Under the pieces are notes generated by a model that was given only the letters and a program-made list of their open reading frames with translations, was not told the DNA's origin and searched no databases. 64,000 nt of DNA. It comes from Cyanobacteria bacterium OH_PDB_230 (GTDB lineage: Bacteria; Cyanobacteriota; Vampirovibrionia; Gastranaerophilales; Gastranaerophilaceae). The stretch spans positions 202,556 to 266,555 of the forward strand of contig JAEZSO010000001.1 in assembly GCA_023421795.1 (NCBI GenBank), given 5' to 3'. The position numbers were made by a program, and so were the translations under genes. Positions 9,482-42,979 of the stretch are shown in pieces (position 1 is the stretch's first letter; the number at the start of each line of letters is the position of its first letter).

Positions 9482-10303
9482 ATGGGTTCTATGGGCAATT
9501 TGAGAATATATTTTAAACAGACGGCAACGTATCATCTTTCAAGATTGATTTACAAGCAAATGGAAGATTTCTTTGAAACCCTTGGTGAGATTGGATTGCG
9601 TTTTGTTGCTGTAATGAGATATGTTTTTTCTATGCAGTTTAGATGGAGTCAGGTGGTTGAACAGGCTTCAAGATTTTCTGTTGATTCTTTGCCTATAACG
9701 CTTTCTATTGTTTCAATGACGGCAATCATAGTATCTATGCAGGTCGCTCCAGAGATGGTTAAGCAAGGCGGAAAAGATTATATCGGAATGCTTGTATCAC
9801 TTGTTATGGTTAGAGAAGTAGGAGCTATAATGTCGGGATTCGCTATCATTTCAATGATAGGGTCTGCTATCGCTTCAGAAATAGCTACTATGAGGGTTAC
9901 GGAGCAGATAGACGCTTTGAGAGTTTTGAAAGTTGATCCTTTTAAATACCTGTTCGTTCCAAGAGTTATAGCCGGGACAATCATGATGCCATTTATAGTT
10001 GTTATTGCCTCTTTTGTAGGGGTTGTTGCCGGTGGTTACGCATCTACACTTGCCAGTCCTGAAGTCAGCGGGCTTTCTTTTATGAATTCTGTCTGGTACG
10101 GACTTTATATAAGAGATATAAAGATTTGTCTTTTAAAATCAGCTTTTTTCGGTATGGCAATCACTCTTGTCAGTGCCAGCTGCGGATATGATGCGAGCGG
10201 CGGTGCTAAAGGCGTTGGTATTGCTACAACGAAGGCCGTAGTCTGGTCGTTCGTTGCCATTGTAATAATAGATTACGTATTTGCTTTATTGTTTTACTTT
10301 TAA
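9482..10303 (+). CDS. mlaE: MlaE-family ABC permease (phospholipid/lipid asymmetry transporter)
   Basis: Typical MlaE/Ttg2B sequence: 'RE.GA.M......G SAI.SEI.TM.VTEQIDAL....DP'. Followed by the cognate ATPase and an MCE protein. Confidence 0.85.
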   Translation: MGSMGNLRIYFKQTATYHLSRLIYKQMEDFFETLGEIGLRFVAVMRYVFSMQFRWSQVVEQASRFSVDSLPITLSIVSMTAIIVSMQVAPEMVKQGGKDYIGMLVSLVMVREVGAIMSGFAIISMIGSAIASEIATMRVTEQIDALRVLKVDPFKYLFVPRVIAGTIMMPFIVVIASFVGVVAGGYASTLASPEVSGLSFMNSVWYGLYIRDIKICLLKSAFFGMAITLVSASCGYDASGGAKGVGIATTKAVVWSFVAIVIIDYVFALLFYF

Positions 10304-13509: not shown

Positions 13510-14539
13510 AAAAATATTGGTAGTCAGATACCGCTTTATTGGCGATACTATTTTAACAATTCCTTTTCTTCGTAATTTAAGGGCAGCTTATCCTGATGCC
13601 CAAATAGATATGCTGGTCGCGCCAAAATCAGGAGAAGTTATTGAAAATTGCCCTTATGTCGATCATTTTATTTATTTTGACACAACGAGAAAACATAAGT
13701 ATGAGAATGTTAATGCTGAAAAGAAAAGTTTTTTTAGCTATGTTAAAAAATTAAAAGAAGAAAAATATGATAAGGCATATGTTTTAAAAAGATCGCTTTC
13801 AAGCGCTTTATTGGTGTTTTTTGCCCAAATAAAAGAAAGAATTGGTTTTGACACTGAGAAAAGAGGCTTTCTTTTGACCAAAAAAGTTGAATATGACAGC
13901 AATAAACATGAAGCAGAGTGTTTTCTGGATGTTTTAAGGGCTGATGGTATAGAGGTAAAAGATTCTTATCTGGAGAACTGGGTTTCAGAAGCAGCTTCTA
14001 TGAAGGTAGATGAAATTTTTGAAATGAATTCAATAATCAATCAGAAAAAAGTAATTGTGCACGCTACTGCCACAAATGAGGGCAAGTTATGGCCTTTAGA
14101 AAACTTTGCAGAAGTTGTAGAATATCTTTCAAACGAAAAAGAAGCGCAAGTTATATATGTCGGCACAGATTTTGATAAAACCACTTACGAAAAACTTGAA
14201 GGATTATTGAAAACAGAGCTCAAGATTAAGCCTCTTAACCTATGCGGCGAGCTGAATATCCAAGAAAGCCTGGCGTTGATTTCAAAAGCGGATTTGCTTG
14301 TTGGGAATGATTCCGGCAATCTCCATATGGCTGCATCTGTTGGGACTAAGGTCATAGGGATATATGGTCCGATGCCTTTCGATAAATGGTATGCGCTCGG
14401 GGAGGACAATATTTTGTTGAAAGCAGACCTCAATTGCATGCCTTGTTTACTTAAAAAACCTTGCCCAAGAGACAAAGAATGTTTAAGAGCCATACTGCCT
14501 GAAATGGTTATAGATGCAATTAATAAAAGTTTAAATTAA
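13502..14539 (+). CDS. Glycosyltransferase family 9 (LPS heptosyltransferase-like)
   Basis: 'RFIGDTILTIPFLRNL' and 'GNDSGNLHMAASVGTKVIGIYGP' are GT9 hallmarks. The ATG overlaps the lpxK stop. Confidence 0.8.
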   Translation: MVKKILVVRYRFIGDTILTIPFLRNLRAAYPDAQIDMLVAPKSGEVIENCPYVDHFIYFDTTRKHKYENVNAEKKSFFSYVKKLKEEKYDKAYVLKRSLSSALLVFFAQIKERIGFDTEKRGFLLTKKVEYDSNKHEAECFLDVLRADGIEVKDSYLENWVSEAASMKVDEIFEMNSIINQKKVIVHATATNEGKLWPLENFAEVVEYLSNEKEAQVIYVGTDFDKTTYEKLEGLLKTELKIKPLNLCGELNIQESLALISKADLLVGNDSGNLHMAASVGTKVIGIYGPMPFDKWYALGEDNILLKADLNCMPCLLKKPCPRDKECLRAILPEMVIDAINKSLN

Positions 14540-15584: not shown

Positions 15585-16667
15585 ATGGCAAACACAGTTG
15601 AAAAAACACAAACAGACGATTTCGTAAAACTTTTAGAAGAAAGCTATAATTATAAATATACAGTAGCTGACGTTGTAAAAGGTATTGTAGTAAAGCAGGA
15701 AAACGATGGCTTTTTAGTAGACATCGGAGCTAAAACAGAAGCTTTCTTGCCAAACAGAGAAATCTCGAATGCTCCTGAGAAAGATTATTCTGAAATCTTA
15801 AAAGCAGGTGAAGTAAAAGAATTTTACGTATTGAGAGAAGATTCTTCAGATGAAGACGTTAAAATCGTTTTATCATTGAAAAAATTGTCTTGCGCTAAAG
15901 CTTGGCAAGCACTTCAAGAAGCTAAACTTAACAATGAAACAGTCACTGCTAAAGTTGCGTCACTTGTTAGAGGCGGTGTAATTGTTGAAGTTATGGACTT
16001 GAGAGGATTTATCCCTGCAAGCCAATTGAGAACAGGCAGCCCATTTGACGGATTAGTCGGTCAAAATGTTGAGGCTAAAGTTCTAGAAGCTGATGCAAGA
16101 AGAAATAAATTAATTCTTTCTCAAAGACAAGCTATAGCTGAACAAAGAGAAGCTGTCGTAGATGATATCATTGCGCAACTTGAAGTTGATCAAGTTGTAA
16201 AAGGTGAAGTTGTCAGAATAGCTGACTTTGGTGCATTTATTGATGTTAACGGAGTAGACGGACTTCTTCCTATTTCTGAAATATCTTGGCAAAGAATCAA
16301 ACATCCTTCAGATATCATTACATTAGGCCAACAGGTTGAAGTTAAAGTATTGAAAATAGATACTGAACTAAAACGTATAAGCTTGAGCTTAAAGAGAATG
16401 GGCGACAATCCTTGGGAAGAAATCGAAAACCAATTCCAAGAAGGTCAGATTGTAAAAGGGACTGTTAATAAAGTAACTTCATTCGGTGCTTTTATAAACA
16501 TATTCCCTGGCGTTGAGGCTTTATTGCCATCTGCAGAAATGGATCCTGTAAATGCTAATCCATTTACTGTTTATAACATAGGTGATGAGGTTGAAGTTCT
16601 AATCAAGAAATTCACTCCTCAAGAACACAGAATAGCTTTAAGTGTTAGAGATATTCAAAAAGACTAA
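15585..16667 (+). CDS. rpsA: 30S ribosomal protein S1 (four S1 domains)
   Basis: Repeated S1 motifs, e.g. 'G.VV.....G..VD.G...GF.P.S' and 'VKGEVVRIADFGAFIDVNGVDGLLPISEISW'. An SD 'aaaggaaa' precedes the ATG. Confidence 0.9.
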   Translation: MANTVEKTQTDDFVKLLEESYNYKYTVADVVKGIVVKQENDGFLVDIGAKTEAFLPNREISNAPEKDYSEILKAGEVKEFYVLREDSSDEDVKIVLSLKKLSCAKAWQALQEAKLNNETVTAKVASLVRGGVIVEVMDLRGFIPASQLRTGSPFDGLVGQNVEAKVLEADARRNKLILSQRQAIAEQREAVVDDIIAQLEVDQVVKGEVVRIADFGAFIDVNGVDGLLPISEISWQRIKHPSDIITLGQQVEVKVLKIDTELKRISLSLKRMGDNPWEEIENQFQEGQIVKGTVNKVTSFGAFINIFPGVEALLPSAEMDPVNANPFTVYNIGDEVEVLIKKFTPQEHRIALSVRDIQKD

Positions 16668-16693
16668 AAATTTATAAAGTCAGATAATTAATA

Positions 16694-16731
16694 AAAGCCG
16701 CTTTAACTTCAGGTTTAAGGCGGCTTTTAGT
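16694..16731 (+). terminator. Intrinsic terminator after rpsA
   Basis: Hairpin agccgctttaa...ttaaggcggct followed by 'tttagttt'. Confidence 0.6.
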
Positions 16732-18882: not shown

Positions 18883-19161
18883 TCTTAGTCCTTTTAAAGC
18901 TATTATTCATTAATCCATACAATTTATTGCTATTATACAATAGTTAAGTACATTAAAGGCAAAATTGTAATAATTTTTGTCAAATATGATAATTAACAGC
19001 TTGTATTCAAGTCTAATATTATATAGACTAAAGGTGTCCAAAGAATTTAGTGATCGCAAATATTAAGTTGAACCTTTGCAAAAAAGGTTTTCAAAATAAC
19101 ACAAATAGAAACGCGCGATAGACTACTATAATGGAATAGCTATAAAACGGATATGTAATAA

Positions 19162-20109
19162 ATGCCTGATATTTCTGTAATAATACCAATATATAAAGAG
19201 AAAAAAGAGTACTTTGAGCAGGCAATCGAATCTGTTCTCAACCAATCAATTAAAAATATAGAAATTCTATGCATAATAGATGGGGCAGCTCCTGAAATAA
19301 CACCTTTAATAGAGACTTTCTGTAAATCCGACAAAAGAATAAAGTTTTTTAAAAATAGTCACAAAGGCCCCGGGAAAACAAGAAATTTTGGGATAAAAAA
19401 AGCCAGAGGCAAATACATAGCATTTATGGATTCTGATGACTATTATCCTTCTCAAGATGTATTAGAGTCTTTATTCTCTGTTGCTGAAGAAACAAAGATA
19501 AAAGTAGTTGGCGGAAAAACGCTATTTGAAAGTCCAGCGGGATTAGAACCGCCACATTGGTTTTTCAAAAATTATGAAAAACTGTTTTCTGATAAGGCTG
19601 TACAATTAAAAGATTATCAATTATGTTGGGGGTATTGGTGCTTTATATATGAGAGAGAATTTATTCTGAAAAACAGAATTTATTTTCCCGATTATATGAG
19701 ATATCAGGATCCTCCGTGGTTTCTAAAAGCATTGAACAAAGCAGGTGTTTTTTATGCTATGGATAAAGTAACTTACATACATAGAGAACAAGAAGGCAGA
19801 AATTGGCTTAATTCTAACAGGAAAGTAAAAGACCACTTCAAGGGCATTTCTGACGTTCTGCAATATAGTGCGAAAAACCATCTGGATGACTTACATAATT
19901 TTATATACAAAAAATTTCTTACAAATGATGAAAATATACTAAAAAATATAAAGACAACTTTTTTTATATCAAAAGCCGGAATCATAAACCATATATTGAA
20001 ATCAATAGACCCTTCTATTATAAATAAGAGCGATGAGGAATTGCCTTATTTCAAAAATTATAAAGACTATAAAAATAGACGCTCTTTATACAACTTAATA
20101 GATCATTAG
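19162..20109 (+). CDS. Glycosyltransferase family 2
   Basis: 'ISVIIPIYKEKKEYFEQAIESVLNQS...IEILCIIDG' and the 'FMDSDDY' DxD motif. Confidence 0.8.
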   Translation: MPDISVIIPIYKEKKEYFEQAIESVLNQSIKNIEILCIIDGAAPEITPLIETFCKSDKRIKFFKNSHKGPGKTRNFGIKKARGKYIAFMDSDDYYPSQDVLESLFSVAEETKIKVVGGKTLFESPAGLEPPHWFFKNYEKLFSDKAVQLKDYQLCWGYWCFIYEREFILKNRIYFPDYMRYQDPPWFLKALNKAGVFYAMDKVTYIHREQEGRNWLNSNRKVKDHFKGISDVLQYSAKNHLDDLHNFIYKKFLTNDENILKNIKTTFFISKAGIINHILKSIDPSIINKSDEELPYFKNYKDYKNRRSLYNLIDH

Positions 20110-34194: not shown

Positions 34195-34513
34195 AATTTC
34201 ATAAATTTTTTTAGAACACTGTCTTTATAATACTATAAAAAACGGGGTTTAGGATATTGGATACAAGATGCCGGCTTGTTATAACTTATATTTTGGTTTT
34301 ATCAGATATCTTTTTTGTTGTTTTGTCGAAACGTTAGCGTTATTTTCTTATCAGCTTTTGTTGTGAAGCGCTTAAATTAATGTATAATAAGTAACTGTAA
34401 TGATTCGTAATACTCGAAATAAATGTAAGAAAAGAAGTAAGAAAACTGATTATATTTGTAAATCGTTTATGCCGAATCTTTTATATAAATTAAAAATCAG
34501 CTAGGAAAGAAGT

Positions 34514-35311
34514 TTGTTTGACGTATCAATAATTTTGGTGAATTACAACACAAAAGAAATAACCAAAAAATGTATTGAATCTATTTATGAAAAAACTCAA
34601 GATGTGAGTTTTGATGTCTGGGTTGTAGACAATGCCTCTCAGGATGGCTCTTGTGAAATGATTGAGGAATGTTTCCCCTGTATTAACCTGATAAAAAATG
34701 ACAGGAATTTGGGTTTTGGTGTTGCAAATAATATTGCGATTGAAAAAAGCAATTCAAAATATGTCTTTCTTTTAAATACAGATACCGTTTTGATAAATAA
34801 TGCCATAAAAATCATGTTGGACTTTATGAACTCCAACGAGGATGCTGCCGCTTGCGGCGGAAGCCTTTTTAATTTGGAAGGGGATTTTGTTTATTCTTTC
34901 GGGATGTTACCGAGGTTAAAAAGCTATACATTTAACAGATTGGGGTTGAGTTTTTTGAATAAACCCGAAAAAAAAGACCGTAAAAAGTCACAGCAGACAG
35001 AACATATAATAGGTGCAGACCTTATGCTCAGAAGATCCGTGCTTAATTCCGTGGGCTTGTTTGACCCTAGATTTTTTCTCTACAACGAAGAGTTAGAACT
35101 TCAATTCAGAATCAATCAGGCGGGTTTTAAGATATATTTTCTCCCTGAAGCCAAAATTATTCATCTAGTAGGACAATCCAGCAAAGATAAAACCCTAAGG
35201 CTGCAATATATGAGAAAAGGTGAATATTTATATTTTGAATTAACACAAAAAAATCTGCCAAAATTTCTTTTGAAAATTCTTTTTAAGTTTCTTGATTTAT
35301 TTGGGCTTTAA
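34514..35311 (+). CDS. Glycosyltransferase family 2
   Basis: 'VSIILVNYNTKEITKKCIESI...VVDNASQDGS...GFGVANN...LLNTD'. TTG start. Confidence 0.8.
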   Translation: MFDVSIILVNYNTKEITKKCIESIYEKTQDVSFDVWVVDNASQDGSCEMIEECFPCINLIKNDRNLGFGVANNIAIEKSNSKYVFLLNTDTVLINNAIKIMLDFMNSNEDAAACGGSLFNLEGDFVYSFGMLPRLKSYTFNRLGLSFLNKPEKKDRKKSQQTEHIIGADLMLRRSVLNSVGLFDPRFFLYNEELELQFRINQAGFKIYFLPEAKIIHLVGQSSKDKTLRLQYMRKGEYLYFELTQKNLPKFLLKILFKFLDLFGL

Positions 35312-35408
35312 TCGTGCTCTTTTTGCTTTTTATCGCTTTTGCGACTATAATTTGAATGGCGAGTTTTCAGGTTCTTAATTTACGATATAAGATTGTAAGC
35401 AGGTAAAT

Positions 35409-36329
35409 ATGAGTGGAAAAGGCAAAATTTCTTTTTACCCTAAAAACAGAGGGGATATAAAGTGGAAAGTGCCTTCATTATTTAATAATGATAATCTGGT
35501 TTTGACCCTTACCGATTATTGTAAGGAATTAGGCGTTAAGCAACCTGTAAATTCAGTCTATGGAGGCGTTAAGTCGGCCTGGAGCGGCGGCAGGGTTTCC
35601 CAGCTTGATGAAGTGGAGGAAACTAAGATATATGATATTCTTTCTGAATACAATCAAAGAGATATCTCTTGCGGTTTCACTTTCAGCAATTACAGAATAA
35701 AAGAAGAAGACCTGGAAGATAAATCAGCTAACTTGTTATTAAAAATAGCTTCCGATGTCTCTGATCAAAATTATGCTATTGTTTCTTCAGATATTCTGGC
35801 TGATTATATCAGGTCTAAATATCCCAGAATAAAGTTGATTTCTTCAATAATAAAACCAGTGTATGAACATAAAAATTACGACGAAACACCCGATTATTAT
35901 AATAAACTCTGCGAAAGATACGATAAAGTGGTTGTCAGACCTGAATTTTATTTTGAAAAAGGGTTTATGAAAAAACTAAAGCACAAAAAAAAGATTGAAA
36001 TAATGGCTAATTTAGGCTGCCTGCAAAGATGCCCTTTGGCCTCAAAACATTATGATCTCACTGTGGAATGGGATGCCGGCAGAGAAGCGCAATATACGAA
36101 ATTCTGCCATGTCGAGATGAATAATGTCCAATCTGTTTATAAAACTACAACGATTTGTAGTGAAGACATAGAGGACTTGATAAAATTAGGATTTGAAAAT
36201 TTTAAACTGAAAGGAAGAGGCATATCAGACATCCAGCTTATGGATTCTATAGGCAATTTTATATTTCATCCTACGGGTTATTTTTTGCATTTAGAGATTA
36301 TGGTTTTTAAAAAATTGGGCATTTATTAA
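35409..36329 (+). CDS. Hypothetical protein, possibly peptidase-U32-like
   Basis: Weak resemblance to U32-family layout: 'NSVYGGV...GGR', 'AIVSSDILADYIRSKYPRIKLISS', and Cys residues in 'GCLQRCP'. Assigned from memory only. Confidence 0.3.
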   Translation: MSGKGKISFYPKNRGDIKWKVPSLFNNDNLVLTLTDYCKELGVKQPVNSVYGGVKSAWSGGRVSQLDEVEETKIYDILSEYNQRDISCGFTFSNYRIKEEDLEDKSANLLLKIASDVSDQNYAIVSSDILADYIRSKYPRIKLISSIIKPVYEHKNYDETPDYYNKLCERYDKVVVRPEFYFEKGFMKKLKHKKKIEIMANLGCLQRCPLASKHYDLTVEWDAGREAQYTKFCHVEMNNVQSVYKTTTICSEDIEDLIKLGFENFKLKGRGISDIQLMDSIGNFIFHPTGYFLHLEIMVFKKLGIY

Positions 36330-36334
36330 AGTAT

Positions 36335-37414
36335 ATGAAAGAAAATAAAATCACCTCGTATAGAAAATATTTGGCACTCCTGATTCTGCCTTTATACCTT
36401 TTGATTAGCTGTGTTTGCTTTGATTTTAATCGGGCCAATGCGGAAATTTCGACAAGTATTGCTGCTAATCAGATAAAAAATACTATCGTTAAAGCTGAAA
36501 ACGATTATCTTTATGATGCTATAGGACCTTCAGGCAAGGTAGTACGCTGGTCCAAAAAACCTATAATAATTTATATTCCTCAAAATAATTACTCTAAAAC
36601 AATAGAATCGGCTTTTAAAGAATGGGAAAGGGCAAGCGGTGAAACCGTAACTTTCAAGAAAACCGATTTGAAATCCAAGGCCGATATCCAGATAATTTTT
36701 ACCGAGAAAATAGGCTCCAACTATGGAGGGCTTACAAAAACATATCACCAGAAAAATAATTTGATAAAAGCTGAAATATTCCTTACTGAAAAAAATAAAA
36801 ATCAAAAACCTATAGAAAAACCTAAAATGTACATACTTGCGCTCCATGAGATAGGGCATTCTCTAGGGATCGTAGGACACAGTTCTGACTTGAATGATGT
36901 AATGTCGTCAGAAGATATTATGCAGCTACAGTCACTGAGCGCAAATGATATTAACACATTGAGAATCATATATTCTGACGAGGCCGGCAAACTGGAAATG
37001 CAAAAAGATATATTTGCTAAAAAACTTATAGAACAAGAACAAAAAGTAAAAAATGACCCTGATAATAAAGTTCAGTTGTTGCTTTTGGCCGGCATGTACA
37101 AGAACATGAATCAGTATCCAGAGGCAATGGAAACGTATGAGAAAATAATAAAACTCGACCCTGATTTTGCCCAAGCGTATTATTCTCTTGGCTCTTGCTA
37201 TTATAAAAAGGGGGAGAAACAAAAGTCGCTTGAATTTTTTAAACAGGCTGTAGATAAAGAACCCGACAACTCCATTTTTTTAAAGGTATTAATTAAAGTC
37301 TCCTGCGAAACGAACAATAAAGAGATGGCTAAAAAATACCTTCTGGAATATGTTGCAAAGCACCCTGAAGCTAAAAATGATCCTGTGATAAAAGATTGTT
37401 TTAAAAAGTTTTAA
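36335..37414 (+). CDS. Lipoprotein-type metzincin (matrixin-like zinc protease) fused to TPR repeats
   Basis: Lipobox 'LLISC', zinc motif 'HEIGHSLGIVGHS' with a downstream 'VM' Met-turn, and C-terminal TPR units ('AYYSLGSCYYKKGE...A...F.QA....P'). Confidence 0.7.
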   Translation: MKENKITSYRKYLALLILPLYLLISCVCFDFNRANAEISTSIAANQIKNTIVKAENDYLYDAIGPSGKVVRWSKKPIIIYIPQNNYSKTIESAFKEWERASGETVTFKKTDLKSKADIQIIFTEKIGSNYGGLTKTYHQKNNLIKAEIFLTEKNKNQKPIEKPKMYILALHEIGHSLGIVGHSSDLNDVMSSEDIMQLQSLSANDINTLRIIYSDEAGKLEMQKDIFAKKLIEQEQKVKNDPDNKVQLLLLAGMYKNMNQYPEAMETYEKIIKLDPDFAQAYYSLGSCYYKKGEKQKSLEFFKQAVDKEPDNSIFLKVLIKVSCETNNKEMAKKYLLEYVAKHPEAKNDPVIKDCFKKF

Positions 37415-37429
37415 GTTTATATTTGTCTT

Positions 37430-38353
37430 TTATAAGACATCAAGGCCTTCAAACCTTTTATCGGTTTTAAACATTTCATAAACAGCGAGCACGCTTTTTT
37501 CTTTGTCTTTTGTTTCAAAAATTATATCAAAATCCAGGTGATAGAATTTAAGGAAAAATTCTGCAAAAGATTCTGTATCTATGGATTCAGAATGGCTGCC
37601 CGCTCTCGCATTCGGTTTTTGATTTGAATAATGTATGTCTGGAAGGCCTTTTTCTTTTTCCCAAGTCGAAAAAAACTTTTTTAAAATAGATTCAATATCT
37701 TTATCTTTTGCTTTATGGGTGTTCAGAACTTGATGATGGAGATTGTCAAAAACAAGTGGAATGCCTGTTGATTCATTTATTTTGATTAGATCCCAAACGT
37801 TGAATATTCTGTCGTCATTTTCCAGGGTCAGCCTGTTTTTGAACCCATCCGGCAGCTGATTATATACTTTTATAAATCTTTTTATTGCTTCAGGCTTGTT
37901 TCCATACGCTCCGCCCGCGTGGAACACAATTTTGTGAGAAGAATCCAAGTTCAAACAGTCAAGAAATTTTACGTGCCATTCTAATTCCTCTATAGAACGT
38001 CTCACGATGTCTGAATCAAGGGAGTTAAGATAAACGATAGGGTTAGGATGCATATATACCCTAATATTCTTATTTTGGATTGAACGCCCGATTTCATCAA
38101 GTTCTTCCCTGTAGTCTTCCCACCATTTAACCTTGTTCACAGGGTGAGAAGCAAACGGAATTGTGTCTGAGCTAATTCTAAAAAGCCTTATATTGTTATC
38201 TTTGTTCCATTCAAGAACTTCCTTTAAGCCGGAAAGGTTCGTCTGAATAAGCTCTCTTAGTTTTTCTTCGCTGGCATTAGCAAGTCTGCAAGTTTTGTTT
38301 AAGGGTGTGGCGGTTGTGAGATTTATGCAAGCATATCCAATTCTATGTTTCAT
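37430..38353 (-). CDS. uvsE: UV damage endonuclease UvdE
   Basis: 'IGYACINL', 'RLFRISSD.IPFASH', 'FHAGGAYGNK..A..RF' and 'LENDD' are typical of the UvdE family. Confidence 0.85.
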   Translation of the reverse strand: MKHRIGYACINLTTATPLNKTCRLANASEEKLRELIQTNLSGLKEVLEWNKDNNIRLFRISSDTIPFASHPVNKVKWWEDYREELDEIGRSIQNKNIRVYMHPNPIVYLNSLDSDIVRRSIEELEWHVKFLDCLNLDSSHKIVFHAGGAYGNKPEAIKRFIKVYNQLPDGFKNRLTLENDDRIFNVWDLIKINESTGIPLVFDNLHHQVLNTHKAKDKDIESILKKFFSTWEKEKGLPDIHYSNQKPNARAGSHSESIDTESFAEFFLKFYHLDFDIIFETKDKEKSVLAVYEMFKTDKRFEGLDVL

Positions 38354-38398
38354 TTGTTTTTTATAAAACCTCTCAATAATTTTGTAAATTGATACTGT

Positions 38399-38869
38399 CT
38401 ATCGATTAAGAATATACAAAGAAAAATTTAAAATTGATGCAAAGCTGACCCATAATAAGTACGGAATTAATAGATAAGCTGCATTTTTAGAAACATTAAA
38501 AAACTTTAATATAGATAAAAGTATGAATAACAACAAGAAAATTATTACGATAAATGCCAATAAAATATTATGTAAGCCGAAAAATACTATGGACCATAAG
38601 CCGTTCAAAACGAGTTGGATACCAAAAAATATTGTACCTTGAATTTTATCTTTGCTGTTTTCTGCTTTCAATACGAGAAATAAGGATACTCCCATCAATA
38701 TATAAAGCATTGTCCACACAGGAGAAAATACCCAGCTTGGAGGGCTGAAAAATGGTTTTTTCAGAAAACTAAACCACGGATAAATATTTTTCGCCGTTAT
38801 AAAACCGCCAATTATCCCAGGTAGGAAACAAACAAATATTGAACCAGTTAATTTGAAAAAGTTTTTCAT
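38399..38869 (-). CDS. tspO: TspO/MBR tryptophan-rich sensory protein
   Basis: 156 aa with five TM helices, 'KPFFSPPSWVFSPVWTMLYILMG' and 'NGLWS..FF'. Confidence 0.85.
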   Translation of the reverse strand: MKNFFKLTGSIFVCFLPGIIGGFITAKNIYPWFSFLKKPFFSPPSWVFSPVWTMLYILMGVSLFLVLKAENSKDKIQGTIFFGIQLVLNGLWSIVFFGLHNILLAFIVIIFLLLFILLSILKFFNVSKNAAYLLIPYLLWVSFASILNFSLYILNR

Positions 38870-39032
38870 AATCGCCCCTGAATGTGAGATTTTTATAAAG
38901 TTTATAACTTAAATGTATGTAAAACAAGTACCCGGAGGGGTTTGTATAAGACTTACTTTCTGATTGAAACCGGAATAATGCAAGATTTTTAGCAGATAAA
39001 AAAGTAAAATTGTTTATGATTTTGTAGAATGC

Positions 39033-39107
39033 ACTAAAAAAGCCCCTAATAGTGGGGCTTTTAAATGGTGCCGCGTCTCGGAATCGAACCAAGGACACAG
39101 GGATTTT
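39033..39107. repeat. Distal direct repeat: 3' 42 nt of tRNA-Phe plus its downstream terminator (att-like remnant)
   Basis: 74/75 identical to 41475-41549, with the single mismatch at 39048 versus 41490. The tRNA-derived part is 39066-39107 and stops inside the anticodon loop. Confidence 0.9.
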
Positions 39108-39332
39108 GTTTCTTGATTTCTCAAAACAGAATGCCAGGTTTTGAATTAATATGCAAAACAACCGAGAATAGAACTTTATCTATTCAATGGATTGAGATGA
39201 ATAATAAAATTTAACTAAATTAAGCCTTTCATTTCTTAACACGCCTTGAGAGCCCTTTTTAGATTAGAAAATTTATATAAGCAAATCCTTATATTCCATA
39301 AGGTACCAAACTAATTTACAAATAATGATAAT

Positions 39333-41147
39333 TTATACCATTAATGCTTGAGATTCATCAGCTAATAATGTATTCAATTCACTTGGTAATATTTCTTCAA
39401 TTCTTATTGCTAAGTTATTTAAAAATTCCTTACTAGTAATCAAGCTTCTCATTGCAACATCTCCGGCTTGTTGTTGATTTTTGATTCTTCTTACTTCGCT
39501 AATAACAAACCTTTCCACTTTCTCAAAATAGCTATTAAAGCTTTTTTCTTTATTTTGATGCACTTTTTCATTCAGGTAGTAACCTTTATCAACCATTTGT
39601 TTAAAAATACGAGATAACTGATCTTCGCTATATTTTATACTCATTAATTTGTTAACTCCCCATAGTATATGGTACTTAAAATAGTAAGGAATATAATCTT
39701 CTTTAGGCGTGGTTTTAATGACTCCTTTAATGTTCTTATCAATATAATTAAAAATATAATAGCTAGCAAAAAGTTTATAAAACTCTTGATCAGTTATTGA
39801 ATCAATTTTCTCTTCATTCATTCCGAAAACTTTATAATAAAAACCAGTTGGACTAATATCCCAAAGTTTTCGTGAGTTTAAATAAATATCATATGGATTA
39901 ACAAACATGCTGTAGTATGTTTTTGCAATATTTTCCATAGAAATTGTTTTAACTTTCGATTCATTTAGTCGTCGTTTTCGTTTATATGCTACTTGTTGGG
40001 AAACAGGATAGTCTAATGGATACTTTAATTTATAATCTTTAACTTTATTTTCAATTGAAACCTGTATAAAGTCATTACTTCTAAAATCTATTGATTTAAT
40101 TACATTTTGACTATTATTATTCTTAACTATATTTGCAGCTAAACTACTTTCTCTATCTCCACTTGTATATTTATCTGCTTTTACTATTTTTATTAAGACC
40201 TTGATTTGAGTTATATCTATACTATCAGGTTGCTTAGCTATAGTTGTTAACGTTTGAGCTCCATTGACAACTTGAAATTTATGACATGTTAATGTATTTG
40301 TTTTTTCATCCAGTATATAGTTTTCACAAATAGCAGTGATACCATTGTTATAATAAAAGAACTTATTTGGTTCATTTTCAATAGTTTCAATCATTCCTCT
40401 ATTGACTGAATTTTTTCCTAACCACTGCCTAATATTTAAGTTAAATAATCTTTCTCTACATTCTGGCTTTTGATATAATGACCTTATTTTTGAACCCTTT
40501 TGCGTTACAACAATAGTTTCATTTGGTTCTATAGATAGCCGCATATAATCTTCTTGCCCCAAATTAAAAATGACTGTGTCTGGGGGATTATCACCCATCG
40601 TCTTTACTGTCTCGTATTCTATGCGCAATTTAGAAAAGTCTATTATTGAAAACTGGACATTATTTGATTTTGCTTTGTCTTCATAGTGTTTTTGTTCATC
40701 TTCTACAACTCTTTCAGTTGTTACGTATAACAAATTATATTCAGGGTTTTTAATATGCTGTATGTCTTTAATGAAAGCTCTTAATTCCGCATTAGCAGTA
40801 TTTTTATATAAATCAGTCTTCAGATTTTGTGGTAAGTTTATAAAATCTTCAAGCTGTTTAACATCCTTAGTGCCATATTTTGTTTGAATAATATATATCT
40901 TTTCTTCATCGATAGCTATAAAATCAATGCCTTTATCACCCGCATTATCTATCATGCCTTGTTCTATGATATCAGAATCAATTCTGTAGTAATGTTTAAA
41001 AATTTTATCCAAATAAAATTTTAAAAAAGCTCTTCCTTTTGCTTTTGTATCAAGATTATTGATGTCATTAGGATTTTTTAGTGCTGCAAACCCAAGCTCT
41101 TCTGTAAGTATTTTAAACATCTCTTCAAGCATACTTTGTTTAAACAC
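39333..41147 (-). CDS. AIPR-family (abortive infection phage resistance-type) protein with an N-terminal Mrr-like nuclease motif
   Basis: 604 aa. The N-terminus has 'GDKGIDFIAIDEEKIYIIQTKYG' (a D...QxK pattern, as in Mrr-type PD-(D/E)xK folds). The central region 'FNLNIRQWLG...VN..M..T......FFYYNNGITAIC......VVNGAQT' matches the AIPR domain as I recall it. The first in-frame start is a GTG with no SD. Confidence 0.7.
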   Translation of the reverse strand: MFKQSMLEEMFKILTEELGFAALKNPNDINNLDTKAKGRAFLKFYLDKIFKHYYRIDSDIIEQGMIDNAGDKGIDFIAIDEEKIYIIQTKYGTKDVKQLEDFINLPQNLKTDLYKNTANAELRAFIKDIQHIKNPEYNLLYVTTERVVEDEQKHYEDKAKSNNVQFSIIDFSKLRIEYETVKTMGDNPPDTVIFNLGQEDYMRLSIEPNETIVVTQKGSKIRSLYQKPECRERLFNLNIRQWLGKNSVNRGMIETIENEPNKFFYYNNGITAICENYILDEKTNTLTCHKFQVVNGAQTLTTIAKQPDSIDITQIKVLIKIVKADKYTSGDRESSLAANIVKNNNSQNVIKSIDFRSNDFIQVSIENKVKDYKLKYPLDYPVSQQVAYKRKRRLNESKVKTISMENIAKTYYSMFVNPYDIYLNSRKLWDISPTGFYYKVFGMNEEKIDSITDQEFYKLFASYYIFNYIDKNIKGVIKTTPKEDYIPYYFKYHILWGVNKLMSIKYSEDQLSRIFKQMVDKGYYLNEKVHQNKEKSFNSYFEKVERFVISEVRRIKNQQQAGDVAMRSLITSKEFLNNLAIRIEEILPSELNTLLADESQALMV

Positions 41148-41474
41148 ATCTTTTTTAAGTCAGTCTTAGCCATAAAGTTATTCTTCCTTCCCTCTTGTTT
41201 TCAAACTACCTATCATAATAGCATTTTTATTATTAAAACGGGTTAATTTTATACTTTTGTTACCAAAAATGCCGAAGCAGATAATAAAGAATTTTTTATC
41301 ATTAACAAAACTTATTCACAATTTGAAACAGCCTCTGTCAGTTTTTCTTAATATTCCAGCCTGGAGAAAAATACAAATCGAAATTGTATATCAGTTAATA
41401 ATTATTTTTTACATCTTACTCCGACAATTCTACGACAATTTTTAAAAACAAGAATTTTTGCAAAATTGTAAAGT

Positions 41475-41549
41475 ACTAAAAAAGCCCCTCATAGTGGGGC
41501 TTTTAAATGGTGCCGCGTCTCGGAATCGAACCAAGGACACAGGGATTTT
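41475..41549. repeat. Proximal direct repeat, inside and downstream of the intact tRNA-Phe
   Basis: Partner of 39033-39107. Confidence 0.9.
41478..41504 (-). terminator. Intrinsic terminator following tRNA-Phe
   Basis: The minus strand reads gcccc-actatgag-ggggc followed by T6. Confidence 0.6.
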
Positions 41550-41583
41550 CAGTCCCTTGCTCTACCAACTGAGCTAACGCGGC
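41508..41583 (-). tRNA. tRNA-Phe (anticodon GAA), CCA encoded
   Basis: The reverse complement 'gccgcgttagctcagttggtagagcaagggactgaaaatccctgtgtccttggttcgattccgagacgcggcacca' folds as a cloverleaf. Acceptor stem is gccgcgt/acgcggc, the anticodon loop is cuGAAaa, and the T-loop is ggttcgattcc. Confidence 0.9.
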
Positions 41584-41767
41584 AAAGTGTTTACGCTCTC
41601 ATAAGCTAGTTTGTATTACTATAATATCAACTAAAAACTTTTAGTCAATAATTTTCTGGGAATAATAGTAAATTAACACTTATGTCTCGTAGAACAATAA
41701 ATATGGATGTGGTTTTGCCTGTGCACTATGAAGCGCTTGTTGTGAAGATTGAAGGCTTGACTGGGCC

Positions 41768-42979
41768 TTACTTTATTGAATCGTTTCTTGAGTCTAAGAA
41801 TTCTGAAAGGCTTAAAACATCTACATTAGAGGCTTTAGCTAATAAACCTGCTTTAATTCCTATTTTACAGGAGTGACATGATGTGATAACTATGTCCGGA
41901 TTGTTTTTTATAATTTCTTTTGCTGATTTTTTAGAAATTTCTTCAGCTATTTCATTGTACTTGAGAGATAAAGCACTTGAAAATCCGCAACAATTAGTAT
42001 TTTCAATGAGGCAACCTATGTTTTTTAGACTTTTTAATAAAGAAAGATGATTGTCGTCAGAATTGCAGGGCTTATGATAAATTATATTTGTTTTCTTGCT
42101 TGAAGCTATCTCAAATTCATTTTCTTTTAAAAGCTTACTTAAACTTGTTATTTTGAAGCTAATTTTATGCTCAGAGTTTAAGAAATCATCATAAAGTTTA
42201 AGTGCTGAGGAGCAGCTGTCGCAGTCAGACGTTATATAATCTATGTCTTCAGGGATTTTTTTAAAATTTGATTCGGCATTTTTCTCGAAATCATCGAAGT
42301 ATCCGGAGTAATAACTGTGCACTCCGCAGCAGTTTGTTTTTTTCTTTATTACTTCATAGCCTAACTCTTCTAATAAGTTAAGCGATGCGTTTTTGGATCC
42401 AGGGTTAATATATTTACTGTAACAGCTTTCAAAAAAGAGTATCTTTCCTTTTGGTGGATTTGTTTTTTTAAGCTTTCTGTATTTCGATTTTTCTTCTATT
42501 AAATAATTGAACAAAAGAATAAAGTTGCTAACTTTGCTCTTGGATTCTGTTTTTTTAAGTAAGCCGTTTGTGAGTTTATCCAGCCGCAAGAATTTGTACA
42601 CGAAGATTAATATAGATATGGATTTCAATTTAAATTCGTGTAATTTAACTGAGTTTATAAATTTTATCGCATTTTTTTGTTTGTTGTATTCATTTTTAGC
42701 GCAGGCAAAAATTTCTCTGGAATTTATATCGCTTGGACAAAAATCTCTGCAAGCATTGCAATTTAAGCATGAATTTAGATTATTTATGATTGAATTGTTA
42801 AGTTTTAATTCATTTTGTATAATTCCATTCAGCAAAATAAATTTGCCTCTTGAGACTGAACTTTCATTTTTCGTGGTTTCGTAAACAGGGCAAACTGATT
42901 GGCATAAGCCGCATTTTGAACATTTATATATTTCTTCTTTGTAGTCATTTAAACTTTTCATAATATAATTATGCATCAA
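41768..42979 (-). CDS. (Fe-S)-binding protein with two 4Fe-4S ferredoxin motifs and two CCG domains (GlcF / heterodisulfide-reductase-like)
   Basis: 'CSKCGLCQSVCPVY' and 'CLNCNACRDFCPS', then two Cys-rich 'CCG' segments ('TNCCGVHS', 'TNCCGFSS'). No GlcD/E-type partner is adjacent. Confidence 0.7.
   Translation of the reverse strand: MMHNYIMKSLNDYKEEIYKCSKCGLCQSVCPVYETTKNESSVSRGKFILLNGIIQNELKLNNSIINNLNSCLNCNACRDFCPSDINSREIFACAKNEYNKQKNAIKFINSVKLHEFKLKSISILIFVYKFLRLDKLTNGLLKKTESKSKVSNFILLFNYLIEEKSKYRKLKKTNPPKGKILFFESCYSKYINPGSKNASLNLLEELGYEVIKKKTNCCGVHSYYSGYFDDFEKNAESNFKKIPEDIDYITSDCDSCSSALKLYDDFLNSEHKISFKITSLSKLLKENEFEIASSKKTNIIYHKPCNSDDNHLSLLKSLKNIGCLIENTNCCGFSSALSLKYNEIAEEISKKSAKEIIKNNPDIVITSCHSCKIGIKAGLLAKASNVDVLSLSEFLDSRNDSIK

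Follow-up and report, generated by a model that had tools for sequence, protein, structure and literature searches.

The window examined here is the whole 64,000-nt stretch (positions 202,556 to 266,555 of contig JAEZSO010000001.1, assembly GCA_023421795.1) from Cyanobacteria bacterium OH_PDB_230, an uncultured member of the Gastranaerophilales. A single tRNA gene, tRNA-Phe(GAA), was identified in these 64 kb by ARAGORN, and immediately downstream of it lies a 2.4-kb islet that is bounded by two copies of the 3' part of the tRNA gene and carries one gene of the AIPR/AbiU1 family. The features of this locus, which resemble left and right attachment sites (attL and attR) enclosing a cargo gene, are as follows, in the direction of transcription.

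41508-41583, minus strand: intact tRNA-Phe(GAA) gene (ARAGORN; Rfam RF00005, 69.8 bits), of which positions 35-76 (41508-41549) lie inside the proximal repeat
41475-41549, minus strand: proximal repeat copy (attL-type core), consisting of the 3' part of the tRNA, starting in the anticodon loop, and the next 33 nt
41480-41504, minus strand: terminator hairpin 3' of tRNA-Phe, with a 9-bp stem, a 7-nt loop and a U-run
41174-41474, minus strand: non-coding arm of ~300 nt from attL to the ancestral AIPR start, with no recombinase remnant detected
39333-41173, minus strand: AIPR/AbiU1-family gene, with the ancestral ATG at 41173 and the main open reading frame (ORF) at 39333-41147 in the -1 frame (Pfam PF10592, PADLOC AbiU, homologues)
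39108-39332, minus strand: non-coding arm of 225 nt from the AIPR stop to the displaced tRNA fragment
39033-39107, minus strand: distal repeat copy (attR-type), consisting of the displaced 3' fragment of tRNA-Phe (positions 35-76) and a copy of the terminator
39038-39062, minus strand: second copy of the terminator hairpin, with one loop base different (39048)

A repeat finder reported an 80-nt direct repeat at this locus (39028-39107 versus 41470-41549, 96% identity), within which a 75-nt core (39033-39107 versus 41475-41549) is identical at 74 of its 75 positions. The core corresponds to tRNA positions 35-76 plus the 33 nt that follow, the two copies begin 2,442 bp apart in the same orientation, and the fragment, which lies downstream of tRNA-Phe, reaches the 3' end of the tRNA. 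Identity ends abruptly at tRNA position 35, within the 7-nt anticodon loop. The sole mismatch, A at 39048 and C at 41490, falls in the loop of the terminator hairpin, for which folding gave -15.4 and -13.6 kcal/mol in the two copies (z about -3.7). An exact stretch of 59 nt in the repeat occurs twice in the window compared with 0 expected from 100 shuffles, a sensitive blastn search with the tRNA region recovered no additional tRNA-Phe fragments in the window, and an Rfam scan gave no RNA match other than the tRNA. Thus, the intact tRNA gene, the near-perfect repeats with their one loop difference, and the break inside the anticodon loop, all recorded in a preliminary description made by eye, were borne out by tRNA prediction, alignment and folding, and the repeat anatomy supports its view of the locus as a scar of site-specific integration into the 3' half of tRNA-Phe. 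The weaker similarity that it had noticed over ~20 nt outside the repeats was not significant, since 204 of 1000 shuffles scored at least as well.

The insert between the repeats (39108-41474, 2,367 bp) contains only one ORF longer than 62 aa, the 604-codon frame at 39333-41147 on the minus strand; the remaining listed ORFs, of 41-62 aa, look spurious. Its G+C content is 27.8%, compared with a window mean of 33.9% (standard deviation 2.6), which is the lowest value among all 2,367-bp windows in the 64 kb and confirms by measurement the AT-richness previously judged by eye. Neither a gene nor a remnant of an integrase, a resolvase, an excisionase-type helix-turn-helix (HTH) protein or a primase was detected in the islet or the window. 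In agreement with the earlier statement that no integrase is present, tblastn searches of the islet and the window with three integrases from related islands, and with their resolvase, primase, Fic and HTH proteins, returned zero matches, and no tyrosine-recombinase boxes turned up in a regular-expression search of the window's ORFs.

The product of the 604-codon ORF matches Pfam PF10592 at residues 235-517 (E 3.6e-38, 132.4 bits against a gathering cut-off of 25) and the PADLOC AbiU profile (E 1.2e-27), and homologues were found at 81%, 68%, 67% and 65% identity. Identification as MzaE was considered and rejected, given that the NCBIfam MzaE match is partial (64.8 bits against a cut-off of 1050) and that partner genes MzaA-D are absent from the islet. 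The preliminary description was therefore correct that there is a single AIPR ORF, but its 604-aa defence gene does not have an intact 5' end, and it had missed a frameshift. The homologues all begin with MAKT(E/D)LKKD(I/V)FKQ..., the equivalent ATG in the window lies at 41173 behind a good ribosome-binding site, and DNA similarity to locus L008, which carries the closest homologue, extends to 41176. The two reading frames part at the following site.

41150-41156, minus strand: frameshift site A_AAA_AAG, with a run of six A (comparison with homologues)

At codons 7-8 the window reads TTA AAA AAG ATG, with six A compared with seven in L008, and the homologues of loci L009 and L015 read through the equivalent site in frame. 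One A (41151-41156) is thus missing relative to all homologues; translation from the ATG at 41173 meets a stop after 31 codons (41078), the 604-codon ORF is in the -1 frame relative to the ancestral start, so that the N-terminal frame of the family is not intact, and gene callers give a 599-aa product that starts at an internal ATG. The sequence at the frameshift is identical in an independent Logan assembly of the same sequencing run, indicating that it is not the error of one assembler. A_AAA_AAG is the classical bacterial -1 slippery heptamer (dnaX type). The heptamer is in phase in the AIPR gene, and a -1 slip there would restore the ancestral protein exactly. Nevertheless, we regard the heptamer as having arisen by coincidence and the change as a recent 1-nt deletion; a regulatory role for A_AAA_AAG is unproven. 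The full-length protein now requires either a -1 ribosomal slip at this site or an internal start, and because of this requirement the AIPR gene is probably inactive or weakly expressed.

The genomic context of the homologues is informative about the origin of the islet. The homologue P0124 (67%) occurs in loci L009-L014, which contain all or part of an island of >11 kb with an integrase, an HTH_17 gene, an AEP/AAA_25 primase, further genes, Fic and, in last position, AIPR; another homologue of 67% identity is in L027, where the order is helicase, Mrr, Fic and AIPR and no integrase match was found within 21.8 kb. In the three loci whose sequences were checked (L009, L010 and L027), a 3' fragment of tRNA-Met (CTCATAACCCGAAGG...CCGCAACCA) lies ~300 nt after the AIPR stop and is followed by a terminator hairpin. 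This fragment starts at the anticodon loop, since the bases just 5' of it cannot form an anticodon stem, and the arm that precedes it contains repeated TTCTGATAA motifs. In L025, with homologue P0123 (68%), the order is primase, HTH, AbiH, helicase, Mrr, AIPR and Fic, and after Fic comes an arm with TTCTGATAA motifs, then a tRNA-Arg(TCT) 3' fragment, which also begins at the anticodon loop, and a terminator, ~1.5 kb past the AIPR stop. The arms bearing TTCTGATAA are located at about 11950-12160 in L009 and L010, at about 12094 in L027 and at 13190-13440 in L025. The motifs are likely arm-type integrase sites, and similar arms seem to serve different tRNA targets, Met(CAT) in L009, L010 and L027 and Arg(TCT) in L025. 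At 13608-13625, ~230 nt beyond the first fragment, L025 has an additional short copy of the 3' end of tRNA-Arg (GCGCGGCAGGCGTAAAT), which may be the scar of an older integration. In addition, L009 has a 31-nt direct repeat (19003-19033 and 19139-19169, 136 nt apart) that overlaps the 5' start of tRNA-Pro(CGG) and may be a duplicated promoter or 5' end.

A third type of island is represented by loci L015-L022, which carry homologue P0128 (65%), and by L029-L031, whose homologues are 63-65% identical. Here AIPR comes first and is followed by a variable slot, HTH, further genes, resolvase and integrase, with the shorter contigs showing only part of it, and in L015-L018 and L029-L031 AIPR is at the tRNA-Met end of the island. 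At the ends of the islands in L015 and L017, 46 nt from the 5' half of tRNA-Met(CAT) are repeated, the rarer 5'-fragment configuration, and the same tRNA-Met gene is present in L016, L018, L029 and L030. Between tRNA-Met and AIPR, L015 and L017 have a further 76-nt repeat that ends in a 9-nt anticodon-loop core and looks like the gene-less, att-flanked leftover of an earlier event (the 46-nt and 76-nt repeats lie in L015 at 9552-9925 and 16586-16698, and the same in L017). The slot after AIPR varies among the otherwise identical islands of L015-L017 (11822-13400), being occupied by nothing, a 455-aa protein or an Mrr-type nuclease, and upstream of tRNA-Met, L015, L016 and L018 have Mu-like transposition genes and L016 has a gene for GmrSD. 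The tRNA-Met locus of L015-L018 is, judging from these contents, a local hotspot for defence and mobile genes. Finally, the closest homologue, P0122 (81%, L008), is beside two methyltransferases, DpnII and GmrSD, with no island structure seen; AIPR homologues also adjoin restriction-modification, Mrr, GmrSD, AbiH and Fic genes.

The AIPR clade is therefore, by its gene neighbourhoods, edge cargo that adjoins the attachment site in three types of island. The layout of the window, in which AIPR is followed by an arm, a tRNA 3' fragment beginning at the anticodon loop and a terminator, matches that of the L009/L010/L027 and L025 types with a different tRNA. Compared with those islands, the window lacks everything between attL and the promoter region of AIPR.

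The displacement of a terminal tRNA gene (tDNA) fragment downstream of a regenerated tDNA, in the same orientation, is the principle by which tyrosine-integrase islands are mapped. Of the two site classes tallied by Islander, crossover in the anticodon loop is the more frequent, accounting for 2083 of 3919 islands (PMC4383910). Our preferred reading, to which we assign a probability of roughly 0.6, is that the locus is the decayed remnant of a tyrosine-integrase island in tRNA-Phe that has kept both att copies and one cargo gene, in the manner of a cis-mobilizable element (CIME). An island would have been inserted by its tyrosine integrase at the anticodon loop of the chromosomal tRNA-Phe gene. 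The attP of the element would have carried a copy of tRNA-Phe positions 35-76 and the terminator, and because of this copy integration would have regenerated the tRNA (41508-41583) and displaced the 3' part originally present to a place 2.44 kb downstream (39033-39107). A subsequent deletion would have taken out the integrase and the other island genes, leaving the two attachment-site copies and, between them, one terminal cargo gene with ~525 nt of non-coding arms.

Several observations speak for this reading. The signature of tDNA plus displaced 3' fragment is complete in the window, the insert has the lowest G+C content among windows of its size, and two relatives (L023 and L024, described below) have a single tRNA-Phe at the same place with no fragment. 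The AIPR homologues of 64-68% identity are at the edges of larger islands (~7 to >11 kb), with an integrase visible in most loci, and gene-less att-flanked leftovers are present in the related loci L015 and L017. In addition, the cargo gene is itself damaged, which is consistent with decay. Of the three options offered in the preliminary description, that of a remnant of a larger island is the one we favor, given the homologues found as terminal cargo in the same layout.

The same observations bear on the possibility that the distal copy descends from a decayed tandem duplication of tRNA-Phe, with AIPR inserted by an illegitimate recombination that removed the 5' half of the second copy. Genes for tRNAs often occur in tandem, and both copies here are followed by the same terminator, as this explanation would predict. 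However, similarity stops at tRNA position 35 and no remains of a 5' half were found, the break is exactly in the 7-nt anticodon loop, like that of the tRNA-Met and tRNA-Arg fragments beside homologous AIPR genes, the intervening DNA is a compositional outlier, and L023 and L024 have one tRNA-Phe only. The duplication, which the preliminary description had itself proposed as grounds for abandoning an integration origin, is on this evidence barely credible.

The chromosomal surroundings of the islet include the following features.

41621-41648, minus strand: promoter-like site upstream of tRNA-Phe, TTGACT-16-TATTAT with TG (consensus scan, 10/12 matches)
41768-42979, minus strand: CCG/4Fe-4S protein gene, conserved flank upstream of tRNA-Phe (Pfam; synteny in L023 and L024)
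38399-38869, minus strand: TspO/MBR gene, flank beyond the islet (Pfam, E 7.7e-47)

The site at 41621-41648 is the predicted promoter of tRNA-Phe, and a similar TTGACTAAAAGTTTTTA... block is present upstream of tRNA-Phe in L023 and L024. A 64-aa ORF (41682-41876, plus strand) between this site and the CCG gene, whose 3' end the ORF overlaps, matches no family and is unlikely to be a real gene. The relatives L023 and L024 were found through the CCG protein; their GyrA is 89% identical to that of the window, and the gene order gyrA-lptA-lptC-pilin-CCG-tRNA-Phe is common to all three. Each relative has one tRNA-Phe after CCG, with downstream genes that differ between them, and L024, too, has a terminator hairpin after the tRNA, of different sequence. 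Since the relatives share the position of the tRNA and differ downstream of it, tRNA-Phe and its terminator are ancestral and the downstream DNA is variable. The difference covers the whole stretch downstream of tRNA-Phe (34500-41500 in the window against 9700-12300 in L023 and 9587-10800 in L024), which in the window contains, on the far side of the islet, TspO, UvdE, an M10/TPR protein, a 306-aa protein and a GT2 glycosyltransferase. tRNA-Phe thus marks a synteny break larger than the islet itself. Named homologues of the flank protein suggest that the window comes from the Gastranaerophilales. A further argument, that AIPR is more conserved than core genes and must have been transferred horizontally, was dropped because the CCG protein evolves fast and GyrA is 89% identical in the same relatives.

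A number of results weigh against the decayed-island reading. An empty site, with tRNA-Phe directly adjoining TspO, was not found in L023, L024 or the loci of TspO homologues, which are 77-78% identical and occur in unrelated places with no tRNA nearby. Exact-protein look-ups with TspO, AIPR and CCG gave matches in one metagenome sample only (ENA ERZ28599070), where the window lies on a 699-kb scaffold. Nor was a parent element with a tRNA-Phe attP found in contig scans: exact-pattern scans with the tRNA 3' end plus terminator and with both island arms returned nothing from viral contigs, the scan with the tRNA 3' end plus terminator returned nothing from metagenome contigs, and a scan of genome contigs gave only an unrelated match in Ginsengibacter. 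We infer the deletion step rather than observe it, since neither a parent element, an empty site nor, in the window, an integrase fragment was found. In addition, the arms of the insert have no detectable similarity to those of the related islands and contain no arm-type repeats, and the genome might encode an integrase at some place outside these 64 kb, in which case the element might still be mobilisable. Finally, the 75 nt of near-identity include the lineage-specific terminator, and the attP of the element must therefore have come from the same lineage. The Logan assembly of the same run, which represents the locus as three contigs with breaks at 39078 and 41520, is uninformative about polymorphism, as exactly those breaks are predicted from the 59-nt exact repeat and k=31.

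The origin of the att sequences within the lineage would also be explained if integration and decay had taken place in another strain and the islet had been imported already decayed, by homologous recombination after transformation or other transfer from a conspecific donor. One genome cannot separate such an import from decay in situ, and the nature of the structure would be unchanged by it; we consider it improbable.

The remaining alternative is that the islet is a functional minimal cassette (attL, AIPR, attR) that lacks an integrase of its own and is moved by a tyrosine integrase encoded elsewhere or on an incoming element, which would make it a defence element of one gene, mobilised either in trans or in cis. 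The near-identity of the att copies (74/75) suggests a recent event or maintenance, AIPR homologues are found repeatedly right at att ends beside variable gene slots, and CIMEs are known to be carried along by a helper element integrating beside them (PMC5704250). Nevertheless, the scanned contig collections hold no second copy of the unit or of its arm sequences, no integrase is encoded within the 64 kb, arm-type repeats are missing, and the cargo gene is frameshifted. Moreover, in the island-type homologue loci examined (L009-L031, L008 being without island structure) the gene is part of a larger island. Nothing supports independent mobility of the 2.4-kb unit, which leaves this part of the preliminary description without backing, and the cassette is unlikely. 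Very unlikely is the more elaborate version in which the unit would be a working recombinase-less single-gene defence cassette, moved in trans from one tRNA site to another or into and out of larger islands, with A_AAA_AAG serving as a switch, frameshift-dependent or phase-variable, that controls a toxic abortive-infection nuclease.

Whatever its route into tRNA-Phe, the AIPR gene is a putative phage-defence (abortive infection) gene by family membership and gene neighbourhood. AbiU1/AIPR is an abortive-infection family that is often linked to restriction-modification systems and is related to DndB (PMC3506569), and AIPR-domain genes are listed among the cargo of P4 hotspots (PMC9122126). In an alignment of 59 homologues, D71, D75 and K90 are invariant and Q88 is nearly so, the residues forming a strand-turn-strand motif (GIDFIAID...IIQTK); within the AIPR domain N238, R240, N267-N268, N295, G296, Q298, T299, N345 and Q347 are invariant. 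A search of PDB sequences with the protein gave no match. The AlphaFold model is confident (mean pLDDT, the predicted local distance difference test, 87.8), and the top matches of a fold search, although weak, are nearly all PD-(D/E)xK nucleases, including FokI (E 0.08, probability 0.98), Nt.BspD6I, the Shedu nuclease domain, EcoT38I and Avs4. A marginal Pfam NERD match (E 0.017) covers residues 45-101 of an N-terminal query counted from the ancestral ATG. It is plausible, though unproven, that the protein combines an N-terminal PD-(D/E)xK nuclease-like effector with a central AIPR domain; the nuclease assignment is tentative, with the presumed activity deduced from D71, D75, K90 and Q88 and the weak fold matches. 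A HEPN domain has been suggested for the AIPR C-terminus (PMC3506569), and we make no such claim for the protein of the window.

The locus provides a clean, precisely bounded candidate example of a defence gene left in the chromosome after an integrative element has lost its mobility genes, in an uncultured gut Melainabacteria-like lineage that has hardly been studied for mobile elements. Such remnants are missed by island finders that require an integrase, and the AIPR ORF that gene finders present as intact is a frameshifted gene. The islet leaves the understanding of such elements unchanged; it would be a new member of an established class, that of CIME-like tRNA islands that have decayed, here with AIPR/AbiU1-type cargo.

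In the literature on integrative and conjugative elements and integrative and mobilizable elements of streptococci, a CIME is defined as an element whose genes for integration and transfer have been lost and whose attL and attR have been kept (PMC5704250). The islet is alike in having both putative att copies at a tRNA 3' end, no integration or transfer genes and little cargo, and the tandem or leftover att copies in its AIPR relatives are as seen in accretion and decay. It differs in its host, an uncultured Gastranaerophilales bacterium, in its size of 2.4 kb with one gene, and in that no parent element was found for the tRNA-Phe site; any mobilisation of the islet is putative. With the islands mapped by Islander (Hudson, Lau and Williams 2015, PMC4383910) it shares a regenerated tDNA, a displaced 3' fragment in the same orientation and a foreign composition. 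Its terminal fragment, its anticodon-loop crossover and its length of 2,442 bp are as Islander expects (2-200 kb), whereas the integrase filter, the only one that it fails, would cause Islander to reject it. The protein, well above the Pfam threshold and matched by the AbiU profile, belongs with the AbiU1/AIPR family (PF10592), which includes lactococcal AbiU and MzaE of MZA; in contrast to those systems the gene of the window stands alone, is frameshifted at its 5' end and encodes a product <=29% identical to plasmid and phage copies. Finally, the islet resembles the P2/P4 hotspots, where defence genes sit at the margins of prophages and satellites (Rousset et al. 2022, PMC9122126), in that a defence-type gene is the variable cargo of an integrative element, and differs from them in having lost the mobile backbone.

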